A stretch of 56,138 nt of DNA from a virus (Duplodnaviria > Caudoviricetes), in IMG/VR virus record IMGVR_UViG_3300017909_002576, positions 1 to 56,138 of that record; one strand, written 5' to 3'. The translations under genes were made by a program, and so were the position numbers. The notes below the pieces were generated by a model, which did no database searches, was not told where the DNA came from, and was given only the letters and a program-made list of their open reading frames with translations. Positions 9,032 through 43,455 of this stretch are shown here, in pieces. How positions within the stretch are numbered: the stretch's first letter is position 1; each line of letters opens with the position of its first letter.

Positions 9032-9295
9032 ATGGCATTTAATAAAGTATTCAATCAAGAAGAAGTAGCCAGATTGAAAAAGTTAATTCAGGAAGGCGAC
9101 CAAGTTCTTTATGAAGTAGACGCTCTTAATACTGGTTTAAGAGAAACTGTAAAAGCAATCGCAGAGGAAATGGACGTTAAACCAAGCATCTTAATGAAAG
9201 CAGTAAAGATTGCTCATAAAGCCAAGTTCACAGATGAACGAGATAATTTTGATGAACTTGAAACAATTCTTGAGGCAGTAGGCAAAACGTTGTAA
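9032..9295 (+). CDS. Small dsDNA-binding protein (T4 DsbA/GapR-like)
   Basis: 87-aa helical protein, LRETVKAIAEEMDVKPSILMKAVKIAHK...FDELETIL. Confidence 0.55.
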   Translation: MAFNKVFNQEEVARLKKLIQEGDQVLYEVDALNTGLRETVKAIAEEMDVKPSILMKAVKIAHKAKFTDERDNFDELETILEAVGKTL

Positions 9296-9915
9296 TGACT
9301 GTACCTTACATATTTGGTACAACAAAAAACTTATCACCTGAAGATATTATTTTATTGGACAAGTACAGTGAGCAACACGGTATGTTCACATCTGCTAAAA
9401 CTAATCAAAATACATATCCGCCTGTAGTAGCAGATAACTGGACGTTAAGTTCTCATCCTCGACATTTAAAATCTATACTACTTTCGGTATTTGAAGAACA
9501 TGATCTTTGGGATATAGACATTTACAATCCTATACAGTTTAGTAAAAATATTGAAGTACTTAAATATGCTAACACTGGCGAATTTCCTTGGCATATAGAC
9601 ACTACTCAGGACCAAGTATGGAATTGTACGTTAAGAGAAACAAACGACGAAACTATAGTTGGCGACTATAATGTAGCAGTAGTAGATGCCTTAGATAGAA
9701 AAGTTACTTGTATCTTATCTTTGTCTTCTGATTATGAAGGAGGTAATTTTCAGATAAGAGAAATAGATTCGGAAGATATTATTTTTGATCGTAGATTATT
9801 GTTTGGTGAATATATTATTTTTCCTACAGTTTATCCCCATCGTGTAACATCAGTTACAGGTGGTGAAAGACATGTTTTAGCATCATGGCTTAAAGGAAAG
9901 CCATATAATGCTTGA
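9295..9915 (+). CDS. 2OG-Fe(II) oxygenase
   Basis: FPWHID (HxD), RKVTCILSLS.DYEGG, FPTVYPHRV, ERHVLASW. Confidence 0.85.
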   Translation: MTVPYIFGTTKNLSPEDIILLDKYSEQHGMFTSAKTNQNTYPPVVADNWTLSSHPRHLKSILLSVFEEHDLWDIDIYNPIQFSKNIEVLKYANTGEFPWHIDTTQDQVWNCTLRETNDETIVGDYNVAVVDALDRKVTCILSLSSDYEGGNFQIREIDSEDIIFDRRLLFGEYIIFPTVYPHRVTSVTGGERHVLASWLKGKPYNA

Positions 9916-9939
9916 CAAACTACAATTTTGTAGTATAAT
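9912..9939 (+). promoter_or_regulatory. Sigma70-type promoter for DNA polymerase
   Basis: TTGACA-16-TATAAT. Confidence 0.75.
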
Positions 9940-9989: not shown

Positions 9990-12674
9990 ATGAGTTATGT
10001 AGATGCCATTCACGACACAAAAAATGATGTTGTAAATGTTGTAGAAAGGGTAGATGGTAAAAGAATATTTACAGAACTGAAACCTATCTATAATTTTTAT
10101 TATGCAGATCCATATGGCAAGAAACGTAGCATTTACGATGAGCCAGTCACAGAAGTAAAGTGTAGCAGTCAAAAAGACTTTAGAAAAAACGTCGGCTTAC
10201 ACAAAAATCGAAAAACATATGAAAGCGATATTAAGGTTGTAAACAAAACCTTATCTGCACATTATGGCGGCCAGGAAGGGCCTAAACTGCATACATGCTT
10301 TTTTGATATTGAGGTAGACTTTGATCCTAAACGTGGATACAGTAGTCCTCAAGATCCTTTCACTCCAATTACTGCAATAGGCTGTTATCTCGATTGGTTA
10401 GATGTAACAGTATGCTTGGCAGTTCCACCCAAAACACTGAGTTGGGAACAGGCACAAGAAGTTGCCAAAGAGTTACCAGAAGTAAAATTATTTAGAACAG
10501 AAAAAGAAATGCTTGATGTATTTCTTGATGTCATCGATGATGCTGATATCTTAAGCGGATGGAATTCAGAAGGGTATGATATTCCATACACAATTAATCG
10601 TATCATTAGAACTATGGGTAAAGCAGAAACAAGACGTATGTGCCTACTTAATAAGTTTCCTAAAGAACGTAGGTATGAACAGTTTGGTAGAGAAACAGTT
10701 AGTTATGATTTAGTTGGTAGAGTACACCTTGACTATTTGCAACTATACAGAAAGTATAACTATGAAGAACGACACAGTTATAGGCTTGACTACATTGGCG
10801 AAATGGAAGTAGGTGAGAAGAAAGTAGCCTATGAAGGAAGTTTAGATAGGCTTTATAATCATGACTTTCTAAAATTTTTAGAATACAACATTCAAGACGT
10901 TGTTCTCTTGGCTAAGATGGATAAGAAATTACAGTTTATTGATCTTGCTAACACTATTGCACATGACAATACAGTACTACTTCCTGTAACAATGGGTGCT
11001 GTAGCAACAACAGAACAAGCAATTATTAATGAAGCACATAGGCGTAATTTTGTTGTTCCAGATAGAAACAGAGAGCAAAAAGGAGATACTACTGCCGCTG
11101 GTGCCTATGTGGCATTTCCAAAGAAAGGTTTTCATGAATGGATAGGTAGCATGGACTTAAACAGTCTGTATCCATCTGTTTTCCGGGCATTGAACATGGC
11201 GCCAGAAACTATTGTAGGTCAGTTAAGACAAGACTATACAGAAGAAGAAATACAAAACAAGATTAAATTAGAAAAGAAATCATTTGCAGATGCGTGGTTA
11301 GGTAAGTTTGGTAGTAATGAATATGACTTTGTTATAGGTAAAGATGTTGACCACAAAATGCATTTGGATATGGAAGATGGTACAAGTGTTGAAGTTACAG
11401 GTGCTGATGTTTATAACTTAGTTTTCAATAGTGGTCAACCTTGGAACATTAGTGCCAATGGTACTATATTTAAAACAGACTTCCAAGGCATTGTACCTGG
11501 ACTATTAGAACGTTGGTATGCTGAAAGACAAGAACTACAAGCAAAGAAAAAACAAGCAACCACTGATGCCGAGATTGCATTTTGGGATAAAAGACAGTTG
11601 GTTAAAAAGATTAACCTTAACAGTTTGTATGGTGCAATATTGAATCCAGGTTGTAGATTCTTTGATAAAAGAATCGGTCAAAGTACAACTCTAACAGGTC
11701 GTGCTATCACAAAACACATGGGAGCAGAAACTAACAGACTGCTAACAGGTACATATGATCATGTTGGTGAAACTATTGTTTATGGTGATACTGACTCTGT
11801 ATATTTTACAGCCGTACCAGCACTACCCGAAGGCGAAAAATTAGATATGGATAGTGCGATTAAGTTGTATGATCACATATCAGATACTGTAAGTGAAACA
11901 TTTCCACAAATGTTAAAAGATCAGTTTAACGTGCCTTTAAGTTCTGGCAAAGTAATGAAAGCAGGACGTGAAGTGGTTGGTAGAGCAGGATTGTTTATCA
12001 CTAAGAAAAGATATGCTATTAACTGTTTAGATATAGAAGGTTGGCAACCAGAAGGCGGAAAACTTAAAGTTATGGGCCTCGATATTAAGAGATCAGATAC
12101 TCCTGAGTTTGTACAAGACTTTCTCGAAGAACTCTTAAAAGATGCTTTGGCAGGCAACACAGAAGATGAAATTTTTACAAAGATTAAAGAGTACAAGAAA
12201 TACTTTAACAGTTTAGACTCTTGGAAGAAAGGCATGCCTAAACGTGTAAACAATCTTACAATGTACACAGCAAAGTTACTGAAACAAGCAAAAGTACCAG
12301 AGAATTATAGACTGCACAAATTAGAAGCAGTAAAGAATGAATCAGAAAATAATATGATACCTGGTCACGTGAGGGCCAGTATTAATTGGAATAACCTTAA
12401 ACAAGCAAACAGCGATAACTACAGTTTACCAATTACTGATGGTGCAAAAGTTATTGTGTGTAGGCTTAGAAGTAATCCTATGGGTTATACCAGTGTTGCA
12501 TATCCAACCGATGAACTCAACTTGCCCGAATGGTTCAAAGAACTACCATTTGATGATGATGGTATGGAAGAAGCAGTATTGGATAAGAAGATTGAAAATG
12601 TGATTGGTGCAATGGGTTACGATATGAATAGAATGAATGAAAGCGAAACATTACAAGCATTCTTTGAATTTTAA
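9990..12674 (+). CDS. Family B DNA polymerase
   Basis: ExoI FDIEV, ExoII GWNSEGYD, ExoIII YNIQD, motif A DLNSLYPS, motif B KINLNSLYG, motif C YGDTDS, KKRY. Start set at MSYVDA after GGAG. Confidence 0.97.
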   Translation: MSYVDAIHDTKNDVVNVVERVDGKRIFTELKPIYNFYYADPYGKKRSIYDEPVTEVKCSSQKDFRKNVGLHKNRKTYESDIKVVNKTLSAHYGGQEGPKLHTCFFDIEVDFDPKRGYSSPQDPFTPITAIGCYLDWLDVTVCLAVPPKTLSWEQAQEVAKELPEVKLFRTEKEMLDVFLDVIDDADILSGWNSEGYDIPYTINRIIRTMGKAETRRMCLLNKFPKERRYEQFGRETVSYDLVGRVHLDYLQLYRKYNYEERHSYRLDYIGEMEVGEKKVAYEGSLDRLYNHDFLKFLEYNIQDVVLLAKMDKKLQFIDLANTIAHDNTVLLPVTMGAVATTEQAIINEAHRRNFVVPDRNREQKGDTTAAGAYVAFPKKGFHEWIGSMDLNSLYPSVFRALNMAPETIVGQLRQDYTEEEIQNKIKLEKKSFADAWLGKFGSNEYDFVIGKDVDHKMHLDMEDGTSVEVTGADVYNLVFNSGQPWNISANGTIFKTDFQGIVPGLLERWYAERQELQAKKKQATTDAEIAFWDKRQLVKKINLNSLYGAILNPGCRFFDKRIGQSTTLTGRAITKHMGAETNRLLTGTYDHVGETIVYGDTDSVYFTAVPALPEGEKLDMDSAIKLYDHISDTVSETFPQMLKDQFNVPLSSGKVMKAGREVVGRAGLFITKKRYAINCLDIEGWQPEGGKLKVMGLDIKRSDTPEFVQDFLEELLKDALAGNTEDEIFTKIKEYKKYFNSLDSWKKGMPKRVNNLTMYTAKLLKQAKVPENYRLHKLEAVKNESENNMIPGHVRASINWNNLKQANSDNYSLPITDGAKVIVCRLRSNPMGYTSVAYPTDELNLPEWFKELPFDDDGMEEAVLDKKIENVIGAMGYDMNRMNESETLQAFFEF

Positions 12675-12698
12675 TCGAAAAAAATGGATAAAAAACAC

Positions 12699-12727
12699 TT
12701 GACTTATCTAAATAGTTATAGTATAAT
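12699..12727 (+). promoter_or_regulatory. Sigma70-type promoter with embedded TAAATA
   Basis: TTGACT-17-TATAAT, with CTAAATAG in the spacer. Confidence 0.6.
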
Positions 12728-12751
12728 TTATGAATAATATTGGAGGTCCTT

Positions 12752-13507
12752 ATGGCAAATAATTATATTAAAGATGTTTTTAAAGATGTGTTAAAACATA
12801 CACATGGTTTAGGCATCTTTGAAATGGTAAAAGTAATTGGTACTGTAGAAAGTACTGAAATAGAAACTGTAGACGCAGAAAAAACTGTTATCTTAAAAGG
12901 TAGCACTCATACGCCTGTGCCTGACTTTGTAGACGCAACTGTAGGGTTAAGTAGAATGGGTGTACTACAAGGTTATTTACAGTATCCCGGTTTTGACAAT
13001 GAAGATGCAACAGTTGAAATTAAAACACAAGAACGTAATGATGATACAGTTCCTGTAGAAGTAGAATTTAAAAGTTCAGATGGTAACGATGCACATTACA
13101 GATTTATGTTAGCAGATGTTATTAATCAACAACTTAAAGACATTAAGTTCAAAGGTGCAGAGTTTGATATTAACATTGTGCCAAGTGTAAAAAATTTAAA
13201 AGACTTAGCATATTTTAATAGTGTGTTAGGTACATATGAAGGTAACTTTAGTCCTAAAACAAATGGTACTGAATTACATTTTAACATTGGTGACGGTGTT
13301 AGTGATAGAACACAAATTTTAATTAACAGCGATATTGATGGCAGTATCACAAGAGATTGGAGATGGCCATTAGATATTGTTCTAAAGATTTTAAGACTTG
13401 GAGAGTCTGGTAATTGTGTAATGAGTTTCAATGATCAAGGTCTATTACAAATTGTTGTAGATAGTGGTCTTGGTGTGTACACATACTTATTGCCAGCAAA
13501 AAGTTAA
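12752..13507 (+). CDS. Probable sliding clamp / processivity factor
   Basis: About 250 aa, directly after the polymerase. Alternating alpha/beta pattern and a C-terminal YTYLLPA strand as in gp45/PCNA-type clamps. The call rests on size, position and pattern only. Confidence 0.55.
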   Translation: MANNYIKDVFKDVLKHTHGLGIFEMVKVIGTVESTEIETVDAEKTVILKGSTHTPVPDFVDATVGLSRMGVLQGYLQYPGFDNEDATVEIKTQERNDDTVPVEVEFKSSDGNDAHYRFMLADVINQQLKDIKFKGAEFDINIVPSVKNLKDLAYFNSVLGTYEGNFSPKTNGTELHFNIGDGVSDRTQILINSDIDGSITRDWRWPLDIVLKILRLGESGNCVMSFNDQGLLQIVVDSGLGVYTYLLPAKS

Positions 13508-13508
13508 T

Positions 13509-15059
13509 ATGGATTTAGGCAAAACACAAAGAGATTATGCAGTTTATCTCCCTGCTATCAGCAGTTTTTACACTAAGCAATTAGAAAAAGTAGAAAGAGT
13601 TACTGAAAGTAGAGTTCCTGCAGGCTTTGAAAAAGGACATGAAGGTTTAGACTTTTTACGTCCAGATGCCTATTTTTATTATCCTAATGGTTTGTATTCG
13701 GCAGGCCATGCTCAGTTAGACTTAGATAAAACAGATAAAGACGAACCTATGATTCAACATAGAGATAGGAATACGTCTATGATACTTGGAGACTCAGGTG
13801 GTTTCCAGATTGCAACTGGTGTTCTTAAAATGGATTGGAAAAATGCCAAGGACCCAAACGATCCAGCCAGAACTGCAATTTGTAATAAAATTCTCAAGTG
13901 GTTAGAACATACAGCAGATTGGAGTATGACACTTGATATACCAGCCTTTGCCGCAGTGGCGCCTTTAAGTAAAAAAACAGGACTAACTGATTTTAAGGAT
14001 ACACTTGATATAAGTTTATTAAATCTTGATTATTTTGTTAGAAATAGAACGCCGGGTGCTACTAAATTCCTTAATGTTTTGAGTGGTACTGATGAGTCTA
14101 CAAGTAAAGAATGGTACGAGGCAGTAAAGCATTTTTCTAATTCTGCTTTTGTCTCAGAAGGATACGGCGATGCAAACAGAACTCTTGAGGGATATGCATT
14201 TGCTGGTATTAACATGAAAGACATGTCTTGTGTACTTAATAGAATGCTTGACTTACGTGAAGATGGATTACTGGAAGGCAAAGATTGGATACACTTTCTC
14301 GGCACAGGTAGATTACAATGGGCATGTTTCTTAACTGCAATACAAAGGCAACTAAGAAAATATGACAATCCAAACATTACATTGAGTTTTGATGCCGCAA
14401 GTCCTTTTGTTAATACTGCATATGGTCAAACTTATGCTTATAACTTCTTTGAACCAGGCAAGTTTGGTTATTTTATGGACAGAGCATTTGACAATCAGAG
14501 ATGGAAAGATTCAGATACACCTGCACCATTTGGCCATAGTCCTGTAATGAGCAGACTTACAATGGGCGATTTATGTCCTATGGCGGCAGGTGATTTGGAT
14601 AAAAATGGCAAGGCCAAACTTGCTGAGGGACAGCCTATATTAGACAAAGAGGGCAAACCTAAACTTGACAGCGAAGGTAATCCTATGGTTGCAGAACGCG
14701 ATAGTACAAGTTGGGACACACAAAGTTACTTGTATTACATGGGGCATAGTGTGTTCAATCATATTACAGCAGTACAAGAAGCAAACAGACTTGCTGATGT
14801 AGAAAGATATAGAGAAGATATTGATTACAAACATTGGAAGAAGCCTACTAAGAAAAGCAGTAAGGCACAAGAAATCTCTCCATATGTACCTGTAAACATT
14901 ATATATTTTCAAAAATTTGTCGAAGATTTACTCGACCCACAAAATCCTAATCCAAGAGAAATGATTTCTAAATACAAAGAGTTTCTTACACATATTAGTT
15001 TTGGTGGTGAGGAAGATGAAGTAGATGAAGAAGTAATGGATACGTTTTTTGAATTTTAA
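13509..15059 (+). CDS. TGT/DpdA-fold guanine transglycosylase
   Basis: GDSGGFQ, MTLDIP, IHFLGTG and SFDAASP are the TGT catalytic and substrate-binding motifs. No CxCxxC zinc site. Start MDLGK at 13509. Confidence 0.75.
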   Translation: MDLGKTQRDYAVYLPAISSFYTKQLEKVERVTESRVPAGFEKGHEGLDFLRPDAYFYYPNGLYSAGHAQLDLDKTDKDEPMIQHRDRNTSMILGDSGGFQIATGVLKMDWKNAKDPNDPARTAICNKILKWLEHTADWSMTLDIPAFAAVAPLSKKTGLTDFKDTLDISLLNLDYFVRNRTPGATKFLNVLSGTDESTSKEWYEAVKHFSNSAFVSEGYGDANRTLEGYAFAGINMKDMSCVLNRMLDLREDGLLEGKDWIHFLGTGRLQWACFLTAIQRQLRKYDNPNITLSFDAASPFVNTAYGQTYAYNFFEPGKFGYFMDRAFDNQRWKDSDTPAPFGHSPVMSRLTMGDLCPMAAGDLDKNGKAKLAEGQPILDKEGKPKLDSEGNPMVAERDSTSWDTQSYLYYMGHSVFNHITAVQEANRLADVERYREDIDYKHWKKPTKKSSKAQEISPYVPVNIIYFQKFVEDLLDPQNPNPREMISKYKEFLTHISFGGEEDEVDEEVMDTFFEF

Positions 15060-15073
15060 AAGAGGATATTATA

Positions 15074-15400
15074 ATGGATAAACTGGACCCACCATTAGCA
15101 AAAGCATATCATTTAATTAGAAACATTAAACAATGGCATCATGATAGAAATCTTATTGATGGTGCAACAGATAAAGATCAATTAGCAAAACTTATTCAAG
15201 AAATGGGGGAACTAAGTGATAATATTTGTAAAGGCAAAGATGTTGCTGATGATATAGGTGACATGATTGTTGTATTAATAAACATTGCTGAAAGAAACAA
15301 TCTTACAATAGAGGACTGTTTAGAACAAGCATGGAATGATATCAAAGATCGTAAAGGCAAAATGGTTGATGGTATCTTTGTTAAAGAAGGAGACTTATAA
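15074..15400 (+). CDS. MazG-like nucleotide pyrophosphohydrolase
   Basis: QLAKLIQEMGEL...ADDIGDMIVVL...AWNDIKDRKGKMVDGIFVKE. Confidence 0.85.
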   Translation: MDKLDPPLAKAYHLIRNIKQWHHDRNLIDGATDKDQLAKLIQEMGELSDNICKGKDVADDIGDMIVVLINIAERNNLTIEDCLEQAWNDIKDRKGKMVDGIFVKEGDL

Positions 15401-16052: not shown

Positions 16053-16081
16053 TTGACAAATTATAGTTTTTATTATAAAAT
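16053..16081 (+). promoter_or_regulatory. Sigma70-type promoter (leaderless transcript)
   Basis: TTGACA-17-TAAAAT, with ATG 7 nt downstream. Confidence 0.6.
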
Positions 16082-16087: not shown

Positions 16088-16276
16088 ATGGAAATAGTTC
16101 TTAAATACAAAAAAGGTAGATCTACTATATCTAATACTTTAGATATTAGCAATGTAAATGACCCAGAAGAACTTCAAGAAGTGTTGTTAGAATTTTTTGA
16201 TTTTATGATACTTGCTGGTGCAGAACTACCAGAAGAGGTATTAGAGGAATTAGACAATTATGATAGAAGTGATTAA
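16088..16276 (+). CDS. Hypothetical protein
   Basis: 62-aa ORF after the promoter. Confidence 0.6.
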   Translation: MEIVLKYKKGRSTISNTLDISNVNDPEELQEVLLEFFDFMILAGAELPEEVLEELDNYDRSD

Positions 16277-17434: not shown

Positions 17435-17586
17435 TGGAATTGACACAATTGGTATTTATTGTTAGTTTGGTATGCTTTACACTAGCAACTATAAGTATAT
17501 TTTTGGTTGGTAAAGACAACAAGTCACATGGTGTTTCTTTTGGAGAACAAAAAAGCAAATTAAAACACATGGATGATATATTATGA
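17434..17586 (+). CDS. Small single-TM protein (50 aa)
   Basis: MELTQLVFIVSLVCFTLATISIFLVGKDN..., overlapping both neighbours. Confidence 0.55.
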   Translation: MELTQLVFIVSLVCFTLATISIFLVGKDNKSHGVSFGEQKSKLKHMDDIL

Positions 17587-18014
17587 GAAGTATTTGGGTA
17601 ACATTTAGTAAAGAGGGTATTCACAAGTACCCTGCGGCATTGGACGATCCTAAATTAGCAACTGGCGATTGGGACGATGTATCCTTTTTAGGATATCCAC
17701 ATAGACACATCTTTCACTTTAAGGTTTGGCTTGAAGTGTTTCATGATGACAGAGACGTAGAATTTATACAGTTCAAGAGATGGATGGAAAGACTATATGA
17801 TAAAGCCACACTTGAACTTGATTACAAATCATGCGAGATGATTGCAGATGATTTAGCGAGTGAGATACAAGCAATGTATCCTGGTCGCTGGTTAAAGATT
17901 TCGGTAGCCGAAGATAATGAAAACGGTTGCGAAATGGAATACCCTGTTGAGGACGGGGGTCCAAACTTTGAGGATACAGACGCAATAGAAGATGTATTCG
18001 AAAGTCTTAAATAA
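17583..18014 (+). CDS. queD: QueD/PTPS-like T-fold protein (6-carboxytetrahydropterin synthase-like)
   Basis: EGIH...HRHIFH metal ligands, DVEFIQFK, SCEMIA, VAEDNENG. Clustered with folE and queE. Confidence 0.65.
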   Translation: MRSIWVTFSKEGIHKYPAALDDPKLATGDWDDVSFLGYPHRHIFHFKVWLEVFHDDRDVEFIQFKRWMERLYDKATLELDYKSCEMIADDLASEIQAMYPGRWLKISVAEDNENGCEMEYPVEDGGPNFEDTDAIEDVFESLK

Positions 18015-20532: not shown

Positions 20533-21003
20533 ATGAATACGATAAAGATTTCATTTGACGATATCAAAAAAGATGTAGGTGATATTGCTCAGCAATTAAC
20601 TTCTGATGACTTTAAACCTGAAGTTATTTTTGGCCCTGGTAGAGGCGGATATGTTCCTGGAGTAATGTTAAGTCATTATTTTGGTGTACCGTTTCATGGA
20701 TTTGAATGGCAATTTAGAGACTTTGAAGTGCAAGAAGACGAACACTTAGGAGTATTATTAGACAGATATTTTAATAAAGATATCTTAATTGTAGATGATA
20801 TTAACGACAGCGGTAAAACAATGCAAAGCATTTATGCTAAAGTAATTGGTGTACAACATGATGGATATTGGATGCACGGTGATGTAAAATATGCATGTTT
20901 ATATGAACGTTTTAACACCGAGTTTAATAAATTAGATTACAGATCTAAATATATCGAAACAGAACAATGGTTAGACTTCCCTTGGGAGGATTGGTGGAAA
21001 TGA
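20533..21003 (+). CDS. Type I purine phosphoribosyltransferase (Gpt-like)
   Basis: GRGGYVPG, ILIVDDINDSGKT PRPP loop, WLDFPWE. Confidence 0.85.
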   Translation: MNTIKISFDDIKKDVGDIAQQLTSDDFKPEVIFGPGRGGYVPGVMLSHYFGVPFHGFEWQFRDFEVQEDEHLGVLLDRYFNKDILIVDDINDSGKTMQSIYAKVIGVQHDGYWMHGDVKYACLYERFNTEFNKLDYRSKYIETEQWLDFPWEDWWK

Positions 21004-21215
21004 AAACAGCAGTAATTCGTAAAAAGCCTAATTATAACGACGAAGTAAGAGGTCCCGATACTTTTACTTTTGTTGATCTTTACATAGACGGAAATAAGTT
21101 TGGTGAGTTAAATGTATCCGAACATAGTATCCACTATGCAAAAGATGTAGTCGAAAATTGGGAAAGCGGTATTTTAAAAGAGGACAATAAACATATTATT
21201 AAGGAGAATGTTTAA
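21000..21215 (+). CDS. Hypothetical protein
   Basis: Start MKTAV with an ATGA overlap; HSIHYAKDVVENWESGIL. Confidence 0.6.
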   Translation: MKTAVIRKKPNYNDEVRGPDTFTFVDLYIDGNKFGELNVSEHSIHYAKDVVENWESGILKEDNKHIIKENV

Positions 21216-21907
21216 TGGCGGATGAAGTAACAAATAAAATTTTAGGTAGAATCAAAGAAGCCGGAGCCAAGTATTGGGCAAGTGATAATGTTTCTGAGTT
21301 TATGGACGAAGGCGACGATCAAGCACTTATCGAAGAACTTGTACCCAAGTTTGAAAGCATTTTAGATACTTTAATCATTGATAGACATTCAGATCCTAAC
21401 AGTCAAGGTACTGCAAGGCGTCTTGCTAAAATGTATATAAACGAACTTATGTGGGGCAGATACAACGATATGCCTAATGCCACAGCATTTCCAAATGATA
21501 TCGAAGAAGGATATAAGGGCATGTTGGTTGTAAGAAGTGAAATACTTAGTATGTGTTCGCATCACCATCAACCAGTAAAAGGTACAGCATACATTGGTAT
21601 TATTGCAGGTGAAACATTAATCGGTTTAAGTAAATACACAAGAATTGCACAATGGTGTGCAAGACGTGGTACATTACAAGAAGAACTTGCTAATGATATT
21701 GCAAGAGAAATAATGAAAGCAACAGGTAGTGAAAACCTCGGTGTTTACATTCAAGCAACACATGGTTGCGTAGAGAATAGAGGTGTGTTAGCACACAGCA
21801 GTCTTACACAAACTACTGTTTTAGAAGGTTGCTTTTACGATGATCCTGGCACTAAAAAAGAGTTTTTTGATAACATAAAATTACAGCAACAGCATGCCTG
21901 CAGTTAA
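21215..21907 (+). CDS. folE: GTP cyclohydrolase I
   Basis: SMCSHHHQP, GLSKYTRI, LQEEL, HGCVENRGV. Confidence 0.95.
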   Translation: MADEVTNKILGRIKEAGAKYWASDNVSEFMDEGDDQALIEELVPKFESILDTLIIDRHSDPNSQGTARRLAKMYINELMWGRYNDMPNATAFPNDIEEGYKGMLVVRSEILSMCSHHHQPVKGTAYIGIIAGETLIGLSKYTRIAQWCARRGTLQEELANDIAREIMKATGSENLGVYIQATHGCVENRGVLAHSSLTQTTVLEGCFYDDPGTKKEFFDNIKLQQQHACS

Positions 21908-21915: not shown

Positions 21916-22437
21916 ATGATTAGTACAAGAAATGCAACCAGAACATTAATAGTTGGTAAGCACGGAGTACCAGTTAGAGAAGTAACGGAATCCATTTGCG
22001 AAAGAAAATCATTGGATTGGATTACTACAAGATTTCCTGTAACTGTTACTGAAGTATTTGAATGTTTAGATGCTATTGCTGATTATGACAAACTGGTTAA
22101 AGGCGAACATTTAAAACTTGAAAATGTCAGTGAAGAAAAAAATGATTTATTAATTAAAGTTTTACAAATATCAGATACATGCTATTTAAAGATTTTACAA
22201 TTTGGTAAAGTACATTTACCCGATTCAAATGATATGGAACAATTATTTGATAAAGGTTTACTAATGATTGCGTATTTGTCGTTTAAAGACATTGTTGAAA
22301 ACCAAAGGAACTTTATTGATTCAGATGATTTAAGTCAAATAGTTATACAATCTTTTCAGTCATGTTGTGTTGACCATACAGACGAATCGTTGTATAATGT
22401 ATTAAAAGAACAAGTAGAATATGAAACTCAGGTATAG
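21916..22437 (+). CDS. Hypothetical protein (N-terminus faintly DUF433-like)
   Basis: 173 aa. Contains a TTGACC-17-TATAAT (22370-22398) for queE. Confidence 0.55.
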   Translation: MISTRNATRTLIVGKHGVPVREVTESICERKSLDWITTRFPVTVTEVFECLDAIADYDKLVKGEHLKLENVSEEKNDLLIKVLQISDTCYLKILQFGKVHLPDSNDMEQLFDKGLLMIAYLSFKDIVENQRNFIDSDDLSQIVIQSFQSCCVDHTDESLYNVLKEQVEYETQV

Positions 22438-23305
22438 CGAAGCATTTTATAGTGTACAAGGAGAAGGCAGATTTGTTGGTGTGCCTTCCGTTTTCCTACG
22501 AGTTTTTGGTTGTAATTTTGAATGTGCAGGGTTTGGACAACCAAGAGGAGACCTTATTCCAGTTACTGAAATGCCATATTACACAGACGACAGGGCAGAC
22601 AAAGATCACCCAGAAGCATACAAAAGTATAGATGAATTACCAGTCACACCAATAGGTTGTGATTCCAGTGCCAGTTGGGCAATGAAGTATAAACATTTAC
22701 AGATGACTAAATCTGTCGAAGAGGTGTATGATCATATCACCAGTTTACTTCCCAACGGTACATTCGCTGGCCAACACGGCGAAGACATACACTTGGTGAT
22801 CACAGGTGGTGAACCGCTACTGGGGTGGCAACGTGTTTGGCCAGAACTCTTAGATATGTGTAGAAGAGTTGGCTTGAAAAACGTTACCTTTGAGACCAAT
22901 GGCACTCAATTAGTAAAAAGTGATTTGGTAAACTATTTTAATCTACAAAATCAAGATATACATGTTACTTGGAGTACAAGTCCTAAATTAAGTATAAGTG
23001 GCGAAAAAACAGAAGACGCACTTATACCTGCAGTACTTAAAAGTATGAATGAAGTAGAAAACAGTTTTTTATATAACAAATTTGTTGTAAGAGATAAAGA
23101 ATGCTTACAAGAAGTAGATATGTTTGTTGAAGCATACACACAGGCAAGAGTACGTCTTGACTCAGTGTACTTAATGCCAGAAGGTGCTACATTTGAGCAA
23201 CAAACATTAACAGAAAAGAATGTAGCAGAAATTTGTATGAACACAGGATACAAATTTAGTCCAAGATTACATATTAACTTATTTGGTAATGCTTGGGGAA
23301 CGTAG
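22421..23305 (+). CDS. queE: 7-carboxy-7-deazaguanine synthase (radical SAM)
   Basis: SEAFYSVQGEG..GVPSVFLRVFGCNFEC...(insert)...GCDS, TGGEPL, ETNGT, SPKL, SPRLH. Confidence 0.9.
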   Translation: MKLRYSEAFYSVQGEGRFVGVPSVFLRVFGCNFECAGFGQPRGDLIPVTEMPYYTDDRADKDHPEAYKSIDELPVTPIGCDSSASWAMKYKHLQMTKSVEEVYDHITSLLPNGTFAGQHGEDIHLVITGGEPLLGWQRVWPELLDMCRRVGLKNVTFETNGTQLVKSDLVNYFNLQNQDIHVTWSTSPKLSISGEKTEDALIPAVLKSMNEVENSFLYNKFVVRDKECLQEVDMFVEAYTQARVRLDSVYLMPEGATFEQQTLTEKNVAEICMNTGYKFSPRLHINLFGNAWGT

Positions 23306-29085: not shown

Positions 29086-30192
29086 ATGGAAACATTAAAC
29101 GTAAGACCCACAGATGTAGAGCCTGTAGTACACAGAGCAATGCAAGTAAATCGACCAATCTTCCTTTGGGGAGCACCGGGTATTGGTAAATCAGAACTTA
29201 TCCAAGGCATCGTAGATAGCGGAGCACTTGGTAATGCTATGCTCATTGACATGAGACTGGCACTTATGGAACCCACTGACTTGCGTGGATATCCTTTTAG
29301 GAATCCAGAAACTAACGCAATGGAGTGGTCCCCACCTGCAGACCTTCCATCTCAAGAACTTGCTGATCAGTATGATCACATTGTATTGTTCTTAGATGAG
29401 TTGAACTCTGCGCCTCCAAGTGTACAGGCGGCGGCTTATCAGTTAGTATTGAACAAGCGAGTTGGACAATACAAACTGCCTAAAAATGTTAGGATTGTTG
29501 CGGCAGGTAACCGTGAGACTGATAGAGGTGTAACTTACAGAATGCCAGCACCGTTGGCTAACAGGTTCCGACACATTAACATGGAAGTGAACTTTGAAGA
29601 TTGGTCTAAATGGGCAATCATGAATGACATTCACCCTGATGTTATTGGTTATTTGAGTTTTTCAAAAGGTGACTTGTTTGACTTTGATGCAAAAAGTAGT
29701 TCACAATCTTTTGCAACTCCAAGGTCGTGGTCCTTTGTAAGTGAAATTCTCGGAGCAGATGGCTTTGATTCAGCAAGTGCCTTCCAACAAAAGGCAGAAA
29801 TTGCAGGTGCTATTGGCGAAGGTATGGCAATCAAGTTTGTTGAACATAGAAAGATTGCAAGTAAACTTCCAAACCCAGAACAAATTTTAAATGGAGATGT
29901 TAAATCTTTAGACACCAAACTGTCCAAAGAAATTTCAGCAAAATATTCTTTAGTAGTTGGGTTAGCATATGAACTGAACGAAATGTTCAAAGAAAATGGT
30001 ATTGATGATACATTTAAAAAGTCTCTCAATAATACTGTTCGCTTCTCATATGATAACTTTGAACCAGAAATGGTAGTGTTCTTGTTCAAGACTATTATGA
30101 AAGATTACCAGATTAGGTTCAATGTGAGAACTGATCTTGAAAAAGATCTACACAAGACCTTCTCTGATAGATATACAAAGTATATCGCATAG
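29086..30192 (+). CDS. MoxR/dynein-related AAA+ ATPase
   Basis: GAPGIGKS, LFLDELN, AAGNR, LANRF, TPRSW. Confidence 0.9.
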   Translation: METLNVRPTDVEPVVHRAMQVNRPIFLWGAPGIGKSELIQGIVDSGALGNAMLIDMRLALMEPTDLRGYPFRNPETNAMEWSPPADLPSQELADQYDHIVLFLDELNSAPPSVQAAAYQLVLNKRVGQYKLPKNVRIVAAGNRETDRGVTYRMPAPLANRFRHINMEVNFEDWSKWAIMNDIHPDVIGYLSFSKGDLFDFDAKSSSQSFATPRSWSFVSEILGADGFDSASAFQQKAEIAGAIGEGMAIKFVEHRKIASKLPNPEQILNGDVKSLDTKLSKEISAKYSLVVGLAYELNEMFKENGIDDTFKKSLNNTVRFSYDNFEPEMVVFLFKTIMKDYQIRFNVRTDLEKDLHKTFSDRYTKYIA

Positions 30193-37524: not shown

Positions 37525-38201
37525 TATTTGTATCCTATTTGCATATATCTTGTGTATGCAGGTGTTATCATTTCTCCAATATAAATTGTTTGTGATAAAG
37601 GATATTTATCCTGCATCTCCTTGACAGTATAGCACGGATTGATATGTCCGTCAAACTCTTCTGAATTATTTGTTTGCATTACGATAAGTTGATCATTATC
37701 TACACTATCAAACCATAATGTACTCATATGTTCGCAACTGGTGTTTATAATCCAATCTGGTTTTACATTTATTAATTCGCCACCTGTTTCAAATTGCATA
37801 TTGTCACAATCAAGCATATCGACATTGTGTACTACACCTTTATACTGCCAGTTGTTTTGCACAAAAGACTGATTTAACTTCTCTGATTTTTCTATTGCTT
37901 CAGCATCTGTATCTATGCCATAAATGCGTTCTATAGGAATAGTTTTGTGTAAAGGCTCTACTAATGCACCAACCCAACTTCCTAAAATTGCTATTGTAGG
38001 TTTTGGTATTTTTGGATATGTATGATTCAATTCTTTTAATAACCAACTTTTACTTGCTAACTGTCCTTTGCTAAATGCATGAGCAGGGTAGTAACTATTA
38101 TGCTGAACTATATGTTCAAAATAACTGGGTGTGGGTTGCCAGAAGCCATCGTCTATATATTTAGATACTTCTTTCCAATTTTTTAAATTGATTGTTTCCA
38201 T
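37524..38201 (-). CDS. Class I SAM-dependent methyltransferase-like protein
   Basis: AFSKGQLASKSWL, IAILGSWVG, YGIDTD, INTSCEH, RYMQIG. Confidence 0.6.
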   Translation of the reverse strand: METINLKNWKEVSKYIDDGFWQPTPSYFEHIVQHNSYYPAHAFSKGQLASKSWLLKELNHTYPKIPKPTIAILGSWVGALVEPLHKTIPIERIYGIDTDAEAIEKSEKLNQSFVQNNWQYKGVVHNVDMLDCDNMQFETGGELINVKPDWIINTSCEHMSTLWFDSVDNDQLIVMQTNNSEEFDGHINPCYTVKEMQDKYPLSQTIYIGEMITPAYTRYMQIGYK

Positions 38202-41200
38202 AATTTCTCTAACCATTTAAAGTCATTGATTTTGTCTAACTCAGACAAGTTGTTTTTATTTTGAGTTGCAAACAGGTTCCCTTCTGATGCTCCTCTAACT
38301 GCTTCTTCTACATAATCACCCCTGGTGGCACTTAACCACTTGTTTAATCTCTCTAAACTTTCAGTATCGTTATTGAGTGTAAGTTTAACACATTCTCTAA
38401 AAGCACTTCTCCATGTACTAAAAGCATCTGTATTAAATTTAGTTATACAACTAACTTGCTCAATGGATTTGAAACGTTTTGAAAGGCCAGTAGTAAAGTC
38501 TAACCCCCAACTTGTTGCGTCTCTTACAAGTTCTGTAGGAAACAGTTTAACTCCCCCATAACCGTATCTATCACCTGTTACAGGATTTTCACTTGACCAG
38601 ACATGCACAACTTCATCATCATATACGTCTGGAATGTAACTAAAATTAAAATCATCTGTAATATCTGCATCGGCATCTACTACCCAAAACATTTTGCTGT
38701 CTACTCTATTTGCGGCTTCTTTGTGAGCATTGAATATTCCTTCGACATCTCTAACCCAAATTAATTTTAAATCTGGATGTGTTTCAATTAATTTTTGCTG
38801 TAATTTTCTAAAGTTAATATCTGCAAAAGGCTCTTTGTAACTTAAGAATACTACGTCAAATAAATTAGTTGTACACCCAGGTTCTTTTACATATTCCAAT
38901 TGCTTAAACCTATTAAGTTTTACATCATCTGATTTTAATGTACTGTAATCTATAAAAGTAGGCCATAATCTAAGGCCGCCGTATGCGTGAACTTTGTCTG
39001 TGATATTGTTGACTTTTTGCCAAGAATGTATTTTATTTACATTTGTAATTTTTGGCAAGTAGCCAGAATCTATTACCTTCTGATCTACTTTAACATCTGG
39101 GTCTATAGTCCAAATAAAGGGTGTTTTGGCTTCCTCTATTGCGTTTACGACCTCTTTCTTTTCTAAACTTTGCAAGTAGATAACTGGCCATTTAGGCTTA
39201 AGGCTTGCAATAGTATTTATTAATTTTAAGTTTGCAAAAGAGTTATTAGCAATATCTTTGTCTGTATATTCGTTATCTAAAAAAGTATTTTTTGGTATTA
39301 GTCTTACGTTTCTATGTGTATTGTCTTCATTTAAAAATACATGCACGTTCTTTTTATCCCATTGCGTAGGGTAGTAATCAAATTTAAAATCCTCGTTTAT
39401 TTGTGTAAATGCATCTACTATCCAGTACATATCGGCGTTAGATTGGGTGCTTAGACGCACATAGACGCTCTGTAAGCCGTCTTTATAGTCTTCTGGGTGT
39501 AAGTGATATACTGGATATTCAATTTGAACACACGCAGGCTCTCTAATGTATTTAGGCCTTTTATGTTTAGTTGAAGGCACTTTAGGACACAACATTATGC
39601 CACCGTAATCATACTGCCTGCCTGTAATTGGATTTAATTTTTGCCATACATGTGTTTTACCACTATCCCATATACTTGGAATATAACTAAAGTCAAAATC
39701 TTCTAACGGCGTAACATCATTTTCTATAACCCAAAACCAGTCTTTTGATGTAAGTTCTCTGCCTTCTTCTTCAGTTTGATAACGTTCAAAAACAGGTTTT
39801 GTAAACGGAGATTCGCTGTGTATTTTTGTTTCTGCATTTTCCCAGTCATATGGCACCCAACGTATGCCTCCTATCTCTTCTGGATACTTATGTTCTAATT
39901 GACCTTGAACATGAAATGTATGTATATAGTCCTTTTCAAAATTGCTTGGTACCCATTCAAAGTTTTCATCTATAATATATTCCTTGTCTATTAACCAACA
40001 TTCGCCAATTGCTTGAGAATAATCATTTGGATCATCTACTACTAAAGCAGGATATTTTTTTGCTTTTACAGGAACGTCATCGTGTACAACATACTCGCCA
40101 TTCCAATTTTTAGGCACCCAACGTACACCTCCCATTTGTTCAGGGTATTTGTGTTTTAGTTGATTAGGTACATGAAATGTGTGTTGGCACAGCATTTCAA
40201 AGCCAGGAGGACACCAATCAATATCACTGTCAATTTGATATTCTTTGTCTATCAGCCAACAGTCCTCAGTTACAATAGATAAATCCTCAACATCATCAAC
40301 ATACAAAATAGGAAATTCTCTGGGTTTTACATGTAAATTTCCTTTATATTTTTTGCTTGTATTACTGTTGATAGATGTTGGTACAAGATAAACACCACCT
40401 TCTTTCTCAGGATATTTATGTATAAGTTGATCTGTAATTTTAAAATTAAGCAAATATTTTTGCTCATCGCGAGTAGGAACATACTTTAATACTTGACTAA
40501 TATTATGTTCGCTATCTATCGACCAAAACATTTTAGTTCTACTCTTTTTTACTGTGTTATAAAAATCTTGCGGATTATCTGTGAAGAAAAGATCGTACCT
40601 CACTGGTACAACATCGTCTTGATATTTGTGTTTTGTATAGTCAAACTCTTTGTGTACAAGTCTTACACCTCCACATCTGAAGTCCCACGGGTCTGTAAAA
40701 TCGTGTGGGTATCTAAAGTCTAAATGCCCTGGTATTTTAAATACGTGAATGTACTCTTGCTCATGTTCTGCAGGAACATAAAGTAATTTTCCATTAAATT
40801 CAAAATCACGATCTACTACCCAAAACCAATCTGTTTTACTTCTGTCTGCATAATCGTTCAATGCTTCTGCTGTAAATTCATTTTCGTCTACATAGAATAC
40901 ATCATAATTTTCGTCCTCTATAGGACATGCAGGGTGTATTTTTATTTCTGCTTCTTTCCAATCTTTAGGAACAAGTCTTACTCCTCCCATCGCCATAGGA
41001 TACTTTTCAGTTAGTTGGTAAGGCATTCTAAAACTGTGAATCATATTTTTTTCAAATGGGTTTGGCACCCAGTCTACAGTTTTAACATTTATTTTATGAT
41101 CTTTATCTATGAGCCATACATAGTCGTCTTCTAATATATCTCTTTGTACATAATCGTTTACATCTTTTACATACAATATAGGATATATTACGTTAGCATC

Positions 41201-41755
41201 TAAATATGTGTGATACTTTATATCTGCATTTTTCCAGTCACGTGGAAACAATTTTATGCCTCCCTCTTCTGCAGGATACTTATGCTCAAGTTGTCCACGT
41301 AAATGGAAACTATGTATAAAGTTTGGTTCGAAATTCCCTGGTGCCCAATCTATATCATCTGCTAATTCGTAATCATTATCAACACACCAAACATGTGTTG
41401 CAAGGCTGTTTTGCTTAAAATAATCTTCTGGTGTGTCAGTATTTAGAATATCAAATACTTTTTTACATACTACTTTGTTGTGATATACTGTTTCTAATTT
41501 ATCAGTTGCTACTTTAGGTAAAAGACTGATTCCTCCGTAATTAGAACTATTCCATTTCCAACAATGTATAAATTTATCTTGCCATGTGTCTGGTCTAAAA
41601 TCAAAAATATCAAAATTTGTAATTTCAATATTAGGTTCTATTAACCAATATAATTTTGTGTTGGCTTTCACTTTAGATGCATCTGTAACTTTTTTAGCAA
41701 ACGGCAGTTTTTCTTGCAGTTGCAAATTTTCGCCTATGTAAAATACATCAAACAT
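38183..41755 (-). CDS. Multi-module glycosyltransferase-like (GT-A-like) repeat protein
   Basis: About 11 copies of (Y/F)(D/P)V...W(V/L)(V/I)D....P......H.F...GG(V/I)xLxP. The last copy has FDVVFLSY, FWVVDAD (DxD), YGYGGVKLFP and WRSAFRECVKL. Confidence 0.65.
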   Translation of the reverse strand: MFDVFYIGENLQLQEKLPFAKKVTDASKVKANTKLYWLIEPNIEITNFDIFDFRPDTWQDKFIHCWKWNSSNYGGISLLPKVATDKLETVYHNKVVCKKVFDILNTDTPEDYFKQNSLATHVWCVDNDYELADDIDWAPGNFEPNFIHSFHLRGQLEHKYPAEEGGIKLFPRDWKNADIKYHTYLDANVIYPILYVKDVNDYVQRDILEDDYVWLIDKDHKINVKTVDWVPNPFEKNMIHSFRMPYQLTEKYPMAMGGVRLVPKDWKEAEIKIHPACPIEDENYDVFYVDENEFTAEALNDYADRSKTDWFWVVDRDFEFNGKLLYVPAEHEQEYIHVFKIPGHLDFRYPHDFTDPWDFRCGGVRLVHKEFDYTKHKYQDDVVPVRYDLFFTDNPQDFYNTVKKSRTKMFWSIDSEHNISQVLKYVPTRDEQKYLLNFKITDQLIHKYPEKEGGVYLVPTSINSNTSKKYKGNLHVKPREFPILYVDDVEDLSIVTEDCWLIDKEYQIDSDIDWCPPGFEMLCQHTFHVPNQLKHKYPEQMGGVRWVPKNWNGEYVVHDDVPVKAKKYPALVVDDPNDYSQAIGECWLIDKEYIIDENFEWVPSNFEKDYIHTFHVQGQLEHKYPEEIGGIRWVPYDWENAETKIHSESPFTKPVFERYQTEEEGRELTSKDWFWVIENDVTPLEDFDFSYIPSIWDSGKTHVWQKLNPITGRQYDYGGIMLCPKVPSTKHKRPKYIREPACVQIEYPVYHLHPEDYKDGLQSVYVRLSTQSNADMYWIVDAFTQINEDFKFDYYPTQWDKKNVHVFLNEDNTHRNVRLIPKNTFLDNEYTDKDIANNSFANLKLINTIASLKPKWPVIYLQSLEKKEVVNAIEEAKTPFIWTIDPDVKVDQKVIDSGYLPKITNVNKIHSWQKVNNITDKVHAYGGLRLWPTFIDYSTLKSDDVKLNRFKQLEYVKEPGCTTNLFDVVFLSYKEPFADINFRKLQQKLIETHPDLKLIWVRDVEGIFNAHKEAANRVDSKMFWVVDADADITDDFNFSYIPDVYDDEVVHVWSSENPVTGDRYGYGGVKLFPTELVRDATSWGLDFTTGLSKRFKSIEQVSCITKFNTDAFSTWRSAFRECVKLTLNNDTESLERLNKWLSATRGDYVEEAVRGASEGNLFATQNKNNLSELDKINDFKWLEKLWKQSI

Positions 41756-41954
41756 TTCTATCTCTAAACTTACCTAAAATATCTACTACTATATCATTTA
41801 TATGTTTTACACTATTATCGATTGTTTCTAATCGTTTGAGTTGCTCTTCACTTTCTACTGGACATACGCCTATATGTTTAGGCAGATCGCCGCCGCAAAC
41901 GTAACATCTACCTTCTAATTTTCGTTGTATTTTGTTCCAGTTAGTCTTGGACAT
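41748..41954 (-). CDS. Hypothetical protein with a CxxC...HxxxC motif
   Basis: RCYVCGGDLPKHIGVCP. Confidence 0.55.
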   Translation of the reverse strand: MSKTNWNKIQRKLEGRCYVCGGDLPKHIGVCPVESEEQLKRLETIDNSVKHINDIVVDILGKFRDRNV

Positions 41955-43455
41955 GTACCTTTACTCCGTAATGTTGAGCAAAGGCTTCTGCATCTTTTTC
42001 GTCATTTACAATTGGTTGTCCTTTTATGTTTAAACTTGTATTAAGTAACATAGGACAGCCTGATTGCTTGTAAAATTTTGTTAAAAGATTATGTAAGTCA
42101 GGGTGTTCTTCTTTACGAACTGTTTGAACACGGCTGGTGCCGTCTTCGTGTATTATCGCAGGAAACTCTTCTGGCTTTTTACACTTTGCTACAAATTGCA
42201 TATATGGTGCATGACTAATACCTCCCGGCATTTCAAAATAGTCATGTACATGCTCCTCCAGTATCATTGGTGCAAACGGTCTAAACTTTTGACGTTTTTT
42301 AATAACGTTCATTTTGTCTTTGACCTTAGGACCTCTTGGGTCAGCACATAGACTTCTGTTGCCTAATGCACGTGGCCCAAATTCTGCACGGCCGTTTGCT
42401 ATACCAAACAGTTCCCCCGCTTTTAAACTCTTTAATGCTTTTTTAATTGGATATTTTCCTTCTATGTTATATCCAAGATATGGCGTCTCCCAGTTTACTC
42501 TGTTGCCTGTTTTACTGTGATAGTGTAGTGCCGCGGCACCTAAACTACTTCCAGCATCTCCTGGATTAGGCATTATAAAGATATTTTTAAATATATCAAA
42601 TAGTTTACTGTTTGCTACACAATTAAGTGCTACTCCTCCCATGTAAACTAAATTATTACTGCCAGTAAGTTGTTTAGCAAACTGACCGTATGAAAAAATT
42701 CTTTCTTCAACTTGATTCTGAGCCGCCGCCGCTAAATCAAAATCGTCTACGCCTTGATACAGGCTTTTAGGCAATCCTCTTTGCAAATTTATTTTACTTT
42801 TTATTGCATTTTTTTGGCTTATCCAAGGATACTTATGAAAGAATAAGTCACTGCCCATTTGATTTGATAAGTCTGCCCAATTTTCTTTTTTACCATATGC
42901 GGCCATGCCCATTAAGATATATTCATCTTCCATAGGTTTCAAACCGGCTCTATGAGTAACAGCACTATAAAATAAACCTAAACTGTCAGGAAAGCCGATC
43001 CTGTGCATTTGTGTAAGTTTATTATTTTTCCATTTCCATATAGTAGCAGTATCAAACTCTCCAATTGCATCTATAACCATTACAGCACATTCCTCAAACT
43101 CACTGCTTAAAGCACCTGCGGCCGCATGAGTTTCATGATGCCAATAATCTTTTATAGGTATATCTTTTATTTGAGGATAAAACTTTTTAATCCATTGTCT
43201 TTGTGTTGGCTCGTGTAATGCTGACCAATTGCCGTAAATAATATTTCTTAATTTTTTTGCCCATGCTTTTTCGTGTATCACAATGACGTCAGGCATTCCG
43301 CCTTCTATTGCGGCGTTAATAAGATCCTGATTGATCCATGGATCGTTTTTGACTTTACTGTATCTTTCTGCATGGCTGGCAAATTCTATGTCACCGTTGT
43401 TTAGCATACAGGCACCAGCATCGTGGAAGCCAAAACTTAAACCGAGTGTTCTCAT
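41941..43455 (-). CDS. Carbamoyltransferase (NodU/CmcH/TobZ family)
   Basis: HDAGAC, ERYS..KND, HHETHAA, EYILMGMAAYG, GGVALNC, EFGPRALGNRS, RPFAP, LNTSLN. Confidence 0.95.
   Translation of the reverse strand: MRTLGLSFGFHDAGACMLNNGDIEFASHAERYSKVKNDPWINQDLINAAIEGGMPDVIVIHEKAWAKKLRNIIYGNWSALHEPTQRQWIKKFYPQIKDIPIKDYWHHETHAAAGALSSEFEECAVMVIDAIGEFDTATIWKWKNNKLTQMHRIGFPDSLGLFYSAVTHRAGLKPMEDEYILMGMAAYGKKENWADLSNQMGSDLFFHKYPWISQKNAIKSKINLQRGLPKSLYQGVDDFDLAAAAQNQVEERIFSYGQFAKQLTGSNNLVYMGGVALNCVANSKLFDIFKNIFIMPNPGDAGSSLGAAALHYHSKTGNRVNWETPYLGYNIEGKYPIKKALKSLKAGELFGIANGRAEFGPRALGNRSLCADPRGPKVKDKMNVIKKRQKFRPFAPMILEEHVHDYFEMPGGISHAPYMQFVAKCKKPEEFPAIIHEDGTSRVQTVRKEEHPDLHNLLTKFYKQSGCPMLLNTSLNIKGQPIVNDEKDAEAFAQHYGVKVHVQD

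Follow-up and report, generated by a model that had tools for sequence, protein, structure and literature searches.

The locus described here raises the question of how a phage enzyme that exchanges bases in DNA might be brought to its substrate, and whether it could share a docking site on a sliding clamp with the replicative DNA polymerase. The locus lies in a 56,138-nucleotide stretch of the IMG/VR virus record IMGVR_UViG_3300017909_002576 (Duplodnaviria; Caudoviricetes), which is referred to below as the window. It derives from a large marine phage, of whose genome it is a part (12% as estimated by CheckV), and its gene inventory comprises 74 non-overlapping open reading frames (ORFs) on the coding strands. 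Three genes on the + strand extend across 9.9-15.1 kb and encode a DNA polymerase, a protein of 251 amino acids (aa) related to sliding clamps and a transglycosylase-like protein of 516 aa. We lean, on sequence grounds, towards the view that the window encodes a clamp-tethered DNA transglycosylase exchanging guanine for a 7-deazaguanine. Directly supported are the C-terminal tail shared by the polymerase and the enzyme, the fold of the clamp, the superfamily of the enzyme together with its catalytic motifs, the gene trio, the concerted change of the tail motif among relatives and the presence of the pathway genes.

The first gene encodes a family-B (T4-like) DNA polymerase of 894 aa (9990-12674, +). 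Its ORF opens with TTG at 9975, has the first ATG at 9990 and ends at 12674; the product matches PF00136 (E 1.1e-36), PF03104 (E 5.1e-19) and phrog_262 (E 1.7e-197), and its C-terminal 324 aa retrieve matching polymerases in 2218 phage records. The polymerase ends in NESETLQAFFEF and the 516-aa enzyme in GGEEDEVDEEVMDTFFEF, in both cases directly at the stop codon. The polymerase tail TLQAFFEF (12648-12671, +) resembles the PCNA-interacting-protein (PIP) box in its h-x-x-a-a pattern without Q, and occupies the position of the gp45-binding tail of RB69 gp43. The enzyme tail VMDTFFEF (15033-15056, +) has the same h-x-x-F-F-E-F pattern as the polymerase and follows an acidic linker, GGEEDEVDEE (15003-15032, +), which is weakly conserved in comparison with the motif behind it. 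A preliminary description of this DNA had already drawn attention to the common FFEF ending, preceded by an acidic linker in the enzyme, and the ending is indeed peculiar to the two proteins: among all six-frame ORFs of at least 40 aa in the window FFEF is confined to these two C-termini, no other of the 74 ORFs of the inventory has such a tail, and relaxing the pattern to F[FL][DE]F brings in a single further match, inside a 62-aa ORF at 16088-16276. That ORF (+ strand) encodes a very acidic product with an internal LLEFFDF and starts just past a near-consensus promoter at 16053-16081.

The likeness of the two tails was compared with chance by taking the best 7-mer BLOSUM62 match between the last 9 residues of the polymerase and the last 50 residues of the enzyme and repeating the comparison with 200 composition-preserving shuffles. 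For the window pair the score was reached by 1 of 200 shuffles, and in the related loci 26 of 35 distinct polymerase/transglycosylase pairs gave a score reached by at most 10 of 200; the shared tail is not a chance match. Among 31 close homologs of the enzyme F513 is conserved in 97% and F514 in 94%, with 29-84% for the residues of the preceding linker (502-512). The polymerase gp43 of phage RB69 binds the clamp gp45 through the PIP-box peptide with which it ends (residues 883-903; PDB 1b8h), the PIP consensus being Qxxhxxaa (PMC3012046). Both tails of the window fit positions 4 and 7-8 of this consensus (S-E-T-L-Q-A-F-F in the polymerase, E-E-V-M-D-T-F-F in the enzyme), and at position 1 they have S and E, respectively, instead of Q.

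The gene between the two tail-bearing ones (12752-13507, +) has no match by sequence in Pfam (E<=0.01, the gp45 and PCNA models included), NCBIfam or the PDB sequences. Its product belongs to phrog_12062, to which no function is assigned, and the Atlas lead for it consisted of clusters with gp45-slide_C or PCNA_N. An AlphaFold2 model built with 26 homologs as input reached a predicted local distance difference test (pLDDT) score of 88.8 and a predicted template modelling (pTM) score of 0.86. A Foldseek search of the PDB with this model gave at least 500 matches at E<=0.001; among the matches listed all are PCNA with probability 1.00, the best one being 2ijx_A (E 6.2e-12), with template modelling (TM) scores of 0.59-0.70. 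The match spans the full length of the protein and both domains of the processivity fold. The model thus confirms the predicted PCNA/gp45-type sliding clamp at the level of the fold, as had been surmised from the sequence for a gene whose coordinates were given correctly. As a separate observation, an ATPase encoded at 29086-30192 (+; phrog_1297, E 1.7e-95) shows a weak match to a clamp loader family (phrog_168, E 9.1e-5) and is a candidate loader.

The third gene (13509-15059, +) opens as an ORF with GTG at 13464, and its likely start is the ATG at 13509, one base past the stop of the clamp gene. Neither the 516-aa product alone nor the profile of its family found a match in Pfam (E<=0.01), NCBIfam or the PDB sequences, and the tRNA-guanine transglycosylase (TGT) model PF01702 was touched by 1 of 66 family members (E 0.0058), the window protein itself being without a match. 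Since the accepted DpdA of phage 9g likewise escapes this model, which also finds nothing in phi19:2, a phage with dDG-modified DNA and a relative of the DpdA3-encoding phiST, it is too narrow to exclude membership. Compared by hhalign with E. coli Tgt alone the family profile scored 82.6% (E 9.7e-6), and with a profile of 22 gammaproteobacterial Tgt proteins 94.1% (E 1.3e-7, 245 columns). The hallmark motifs are in register, GDSGGFQ of the family with TDSGGFQ of Tgt, MTLD with MIFDEC, LNVLxG with LFGIVQG, EGxAFAG with DGYAIGG, HFLGTG with YLMGVG and SFDAASP with MFDCVMP. The GDSGGFQ motif (13788-13808, +) contains D95, and D295 of SFDAASP (14391-14393, +) is aligned with the Asp of MFDCVMP and is invariant in the family; D95 and D295 correspond to D89 and D264 of Tgt. 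The catalytic roles of the aspartates in DSGGFQ and hFDxxxP are known from work on Tgt. In 114 family members D143 (13935-13937, +), P145, H262 (14292-14294, +) and D295 are invariant and D95-S96-G97-G98 are conserved in at least 90%; DSGG is present in 106 of 109 full-length representatives. The profile comparison settles the assignment of the predicted protein, as a distant member, to the TGT superfamily, in agreement with the TGT-type identity proposed earlier for it.

With the bacterial Tgt proteins (PF01702) the enzyme has in common the core motifs, both catalytic aspartates included, but Tgt acts on tRNA, and the window protein, which has no Pfam match, differs from it in having some 60 inserted residues, a helical C-terminal region and the clamp-type tail. 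The zinc-site cysteines C302, C304 and C307 of Tgt (CxCxxC) have no conserved counterparts; only the His aligns (H413-N414 versus H333-N334 of Tgt). Because the consensus of the 9g-type DpdA likewise lacks CxCxxC, the zinc site is not a defining feature of the DNA-acting branch. The family is very large, with at least 4580 proteins at E<=0.001 (of 8000 candidates scored) and 795 clusters at 50% identity.

Related loci were gathered with single proteins as queries, and a megablast search of the phage collection with this region found no match. The polymerase, clamp and enzyme genes were found together and in the same order in 55 sources, comprising the window, 53 IMG/VR loci and PA5oct; in the most distant trio, L063, the clamp is 25% and the enzyme 31% identical. 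Cultured carriers of the enzyme are represented by 13 records, eleven of PA5oct-like Pseudomonas jumbo phages (52% identity), one of Sinorhizobium phage Phosso (30%) and one of a Vibrio phage, and in all 13 the enzyme is annotated as hypothetical. The order in PA5oct is polymerase (split by an endonuclease), 248-aa clamp homolog, small ORF and gp168, with a QueE-like gene 3 kb downstream. In several relatives the polymerase gene is divided: PA5oct (L008 2605-7831) has a homing endonuclease gene within it, and in L055 and L063 it consists of two ORFs, the first part ending in an unrelated stretch.

Across these loci the enzyme keeps a copy of the motif of its own polymerase in an otherwise poorly conserved linker. 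In clade A, which includes the window, polymerases end in [LM]xxFF[ED]F and enzymes in [LMI]xxFFEF. Clade B polymerases end in LQxFFEF, and their enzymes carry an internal N[SA]FFEE in addition to a terminal DFFEE. The terminal motif of clade C polymerases, TFHSLF[END]F[DN][DE], is accompanied by TFG[AS]LFETDEY located about 35 residues before the end of the enzyme, and that of clade D polymerases, TTFxxLFDF, by a terminal xxNLFDF[DSEN] or STFDSLFD. Single loci follow the same rule: PA5oct has HFDSLFGW at the end of the polymerase and SFNSLFDV inside the enzyme, L063 has terminal KAMKLFNY and KAKSLFEF, L045 has terminal EEYFSFG and internal SEFFDET, and Phosso has terminal TTFNDLFTF and IVEGLF. 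On a tree of 55 rows built from the clamp and the enzyme without its last 70 residues, the FxxLF and [LM]xxFF states change once each, on the same branch (support 98), in the polymerase and the enzyme alike. The motif switch, from FxxLF to [LM]xxFF, is a single concerted event. As the tree offers one switch and one independent pair, no statistical co-evolution is claimed.

The specificity of the motif was assessed in several sets of ORFs. A permissive tail pattern was found in 110 of 2199 ORFs (at least 80 aa, 62 sources), 92 of the 110 being the polymerase or the enzyme and the other 18 for the most part antisense or hydrophobic. Of the 646 ORFs of the complete PA5oct genome 5 have F.[SDNTA]LF within their final 45 residues, namely the polymerase, gp168, one ORF of 1319 aa and two hydrophobic ORFs. 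The 1319-aa ORF (NC_071039, 61207-65166, -), where the motif takes the form SKFGNLFQ, is the one further ORF that may plausibly carry the polymerase-type motif there. Among close homologs of the enzyme [FY]F[DE] or [LI]F[DE] is present in the last 45 residues of 111 of 120 proteins, against 4.8% of internal windows, and of 117 representatives of the wider family 34 have [LFM]F among their final 8 residues, compared with a frequency of 3.5% in internal windows (binomial p 6e-22).

Genes for the supply of a 7-deazaguanine base accompany the trio. A MazG-like nucleotide pyrophosphohydrolase is encoded directly 3' of the enzyme (15074-15400, +; PF03819 E 8.2e-5; phrog_1992, phrog_715). Further downstream lie genes for a DpdL-like QueD paralog (17583-18014, +), a phosphoribosyltransferase-domain protein (20533-21003, +; PF00156 E 1.8e-13), the GTP cyclohydrolase I FolE (21215-21907, +; PF01227 E 3.6e-37, the NCBIfam FolE models scoring below their cut-offs) and a QueE-like radical SAM protein (22421-23305, +), the last assigned by its N-terminal ~35 residues, which match NCBIfam QueE with E 4.8e-11, far below the cut-off, and by Fer4_12 (E 2.2e-4). 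The DpdL-like protein contains LGYPHRHIF (17688-17714), an instance of LxxxHRHxF, the signature given by Hutinet 2023 for DpdL, the proposed 7-carboxy-7-deazaguanine decarboxylase (PMC10516641); it is 30% identical to gp040 of Cellulophaga phage phi19:2 (E 2e-15), the motif being common to both. Pfam revealed no QueC or QueD among the 27 of 74 window ORFs scanned, the window being a fragment. Five other genomes or contigs carrying the enzyme contain FolE in five and PTPS in four cases, the exception being a contig that is 10% complete, and the Pfam TGT model found nothing in any of five records, three of which belong to this set (PA5oct and two large contigs), the others being Phosso and phi19:2. 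PA5oct DNA is resistant to five restriction enzymes, the pattern of resistance suggesting a modified guanine, and QueE and PTPS genes have been named in this phage (PMC12191111). A 'deazaguanine synthesis/incorporation system' was reported in PA5oct by Iyer et al. 2021 (PMC7824862), with which gp168 may already have been listed.

Comparison with known systems shows both likenesses and differences between the window enzyme and the described DpdA groups. The 9g-type DpdA of Queuovirinae, which inserts preQ0-type bases into DNA, belongs like the window enzyme to the TGT superfamily, is accompanied by FolE, QueD and QueE, adjoins a replicative clamp and a polymerase and has a short LF tail. In phage 9g (L064, NC_024146, 36-4644) the accepted DpdA, annotated as queuine tRNA-ribosyltransferase, is encoded directly between FolE and the 'replicative clamp', which is followed by the polymerase, and ends in RLQDLFDE. 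Among its homologs (P0391-P0510, 70-99% identical) 119 of the 120 listed end in [IV]QELF, QELY or LQDLFD[DE], a type of tail that resembles the bacterial beta-clamp motif QxxLF. The two enzymes differ in size (317 aa versus 516 aa in the window) and are not significantly similar; the QELF-like tail is not common to the 9g polymerase, whereas the window tail is common to its own, and the clamp of 9g, 330 aa in length, is not of the 251-aa PCNA type. The 9g DpdA is missed by Pfam, and its family finds no match among the PDB sequences and scores 3% against the same Tgt profile. As this accepted DpdA thus goes undetected as well, the absence of direct matches is normal for DNA-acting members.

DpdA3, described in Cellulophaga phage phiST (CGPG_00065; PMC10516641), resembles the window enzyme in being a distant TGT relative not directly detected by Pfam and in its neighbours, FolE, QueE, DpdL, MazG and a phosphoribosyltransferase, with QueC not seen. 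Its presumed representative in phi19:2, gp042, identified from its position, is a protein of 259 aa without an LF tail and gave a weak match to the window family (58%, E 9.8e-5, 82 columns); the family profile retrieved nothing by hmmsearch from the first 50 kb of phi19:2. Phages of the phiST/phi19:2 type have a Pol III alpha-type polymerase. Identification of the window enzyme with DpdA3 was considered and rejected as unsupported in view of the different size and tail and the weak match.

On the clamp side, the module has in common with gp43-gp45 of RB69/T4 a family-B polymerase whose flexible end closes with a short aromatic peptide and, encoded within one module with it, a PCNA-type clamp of the trimeric class (PDB 1b8h; PMC3012046). 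It differs in that the second tail-bearing client is a base-exchange enzyme and in that the motif is without the consensus Q. Clamp-coupled DNA modification is known from DNMT1 with PCNA, and together with the T4 alpha-glucosyltransferase-gp45 pair it embodies the same clamp-riding idea, with methyl or glucosyl transfer in place of base exchange. The T4 pair, the nearest phage precedent, was not reproduced in a 2025 preprint (10.64898/2025.12.06.692756).

In the mechanism we propose, the extreme C-terminus of the polymerase would be a PIP-like clamp-binding peptide of which the transglycosylase carries a copy on its acidic linker, and the enzyme would dock in the same pocket of the clamp as the polymerase. 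Docked on the clamp, it would therefore stay on freshly synthesized duplex DNA, either at the fork or shortly behind it, and would there replace guanine by a base provided by the phage FolE, QueE-like and DpdL-like enzymes, the inserted base probably being 7-deazaguanine or its 7-carboxy precursor. An enzyme that rides the clamp and swaps guanine in nascent DNA was also the interpretation given in the preliminary description, and part of it is borne out by the clamp fold, the TGT superfamily, the likeness of the tails and the pathway genes, while the binding to the clamp and the nascent-DNA substrate, as well as the identity of the base, are what we infer.

A number of observations weigh against such a mechanism. 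Nine of the 35 distinct tail pairs scored no better than shuffles, 83 of the 117 representatives of the wider family are without a terminal [LFM]F, and the motif of clade C, L045 and PA5oct lies inside the enzyme and not at its end. Co-variation of the two tails, suggested in the preliminary description as a check, holds in so far as they are alike across distant relatives and switched together, but it amounts to one evolutionary event, not many, and is explicable by shared ancestry. The fold of the enzyme is predicted from profile comparison. By hhalign 9g DpdA and the window family, compared singly or as families, are not significantly similar (4.5% for the families), and the window family is nearer to the tRNA-acting Tgt than to 9g DpdA; the negatives with 9g say little, since the 9g family also fails against the PDB sequences and the Tgt profile. 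The phosphoribosyltransferase and MazG encoded in the window allow a nucleotide-pool route, the clamp homolog of PA5oct, gp170 (L008 7912-8658), is annotated 'structural protein, ESI-MS/MS', and Hutinet 2023 treats insertion of the base as a post-replication event (PMC10516641).

The annotation of gp170 would suit a 251-aa protein that is a virion component with a PCNA-like fold and not a working clamp, in which case the shared tails would not be addressed to it. The gene before the enzyme in Phosso (L009 8205-8927), whose product has no BLASTP match to the window clamp, is likewise annotated 'virion structural protein', and the Atlas clusters are named 'Structural protein family'. We nevertheless hold this explanation to be highly improbable: the PCNA match covers both domains over the full length with probability 1.00, the gene is in every case preceded by that of a T4-like polymerase with a clamp-type tail, no second clamp was seen in the window, and a role in replication is compatible with detection in virion preparations. 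Binding of the acidic aromatic tail to some other replisome partner, such as the single-strand-binding protein, the helicase or the clamp loader, seems to us quite unlikely, although acidic tails with hydrophobic ends do serve other replisome contacts, e.g. in the 9g helicase with its terminal DFDDDIPF, and the motif is without the Q of the PIP consensus. It is countered by the position of the clamp gene between the two tail-bearing genes in 55 sources and by the likeness of the 9g-type QELF tail to the bacterial beta-clamp motif. In addition, the polymerase is T4-like, and the RB69 tail at the same position binds gp45 (PMC3012046).

Two further explanations concern the reaction rather than the docking. 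Modification might take place mainly before replication via the nucleotide pool, with the phosphoribosyltransferase making the nucleotide, MazG clearing dGTP, the polymerase incorporating the analogue and the transglycosylase only patching the remaining guanines. The two enzymes do accompany the pathway genes, and the same pair is found in phi19:2, whose kind replaces all guanine by dDG (PMC10516641), but the conservation of the enzyme and its intact catalytic motifs suggest a main role, and Hutinet 2023 argues for a transglycosylase in every phage with 7-deazaguanine DNA and for insertion after replication (PMC10516641); we consider this route unlikely. That the enzyme is a tRNA-guanine transglycosylase acting on host or phage tRNA, with the tail serving another purpose, is in our opinion very unlikely. 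In its favour, the family is closer by hhalign to bacterial Tgt (94%) than to 9g DpdA (4.5%), and the 9g DpdA family itself reaches only 3% with that Tgt profile. A tRNA-modifying enzyme would, however, have little use for a tail like that of the polymerase and a constant position next to the clamp, there are no tRNA genes in the window, the zinc-site cysteines of Tgt are unmatched, and PA5oct shows G-specific restriction resistance (PMC12191111) with no other detectable TGT.

The remaining features of the window concern expression and neighbouring functions. A sigma-70-like promoter match (11/12) lies in the gap before the clamp gene (12699-12727, +), and further matches were found before the polymerase (12/12, 9912-9939) and at 16053-16081 (11/12); all are consensus matches only. 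As pattern matches their placement would fit a clamp-enzyme-MazG transcription unit. Directly 5' of the polymerase a 2OG-Fe(II) oxygenase is encoded (PF13640, E 6.7e-10; 9295-9915, +). At ~35.8-36.6 kb the GC and AT skews change sign and the coding strand changes from + to -, with convergent transcription. On the - strand paralogous radical SAM proteins (~400-470 aa) form an array over 44257-50490 and 52572-56116, with a SPASM domain at the N-terminus in the four scanned; its neighbours are a carbamoyltransferase (41941-43455), a 1190-aa glycosyltransferase-like protein (38183-41755) and a UDP-glucose dehydrogenase (50490-51812).

Replication-coupled, clamp-docked action of a DpdA enzyme had been put forward as undescribed, and we too found no publication linking a DNA transglycosylase or DpdA with a clamp in the literature searched; the word 'clamp' is absent from Hutinet 2023. 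Judged from sequence, what appears to be new is a large branch of DNA-type transglycosylases and a mode of their recruitment. It is possible, and we put it forward tentatively, that clamp docking is a general property of phage DNA-guanine transglycosylases, relying on a polymerase-copied PIP-like tail and a PCNA-type clamp here and on a QELF tail of the beta-clamp type in 9g-type DpdA. DNA modifications with 7-deazaguanines shield phages from restriction and CRISPR systems. To our knowledge it is not known how the transglycosylase finds and covers the whole genome, the current view being simply that insertion follows replication. The clamp-binding tail, if real, would offer a concrete mechanism coupling base exchange to the fork: 7-deazaguanine would be written at the replication fork and not by free diffusion after replication, which would help to explain the high or complete replacement of guanine in some phages. 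The list of clamp clients would gain a base-exchange enzyme, and gp168 is a candidate for the missing insertion enzyme of the PA5oct-type Pseudomonas jumbo phages. The analysis also defines a very large, unannotated marine protein family. The tail motif could serve as a mark distinguishing DNA-acting from tRNA-acting members of the superfamily.

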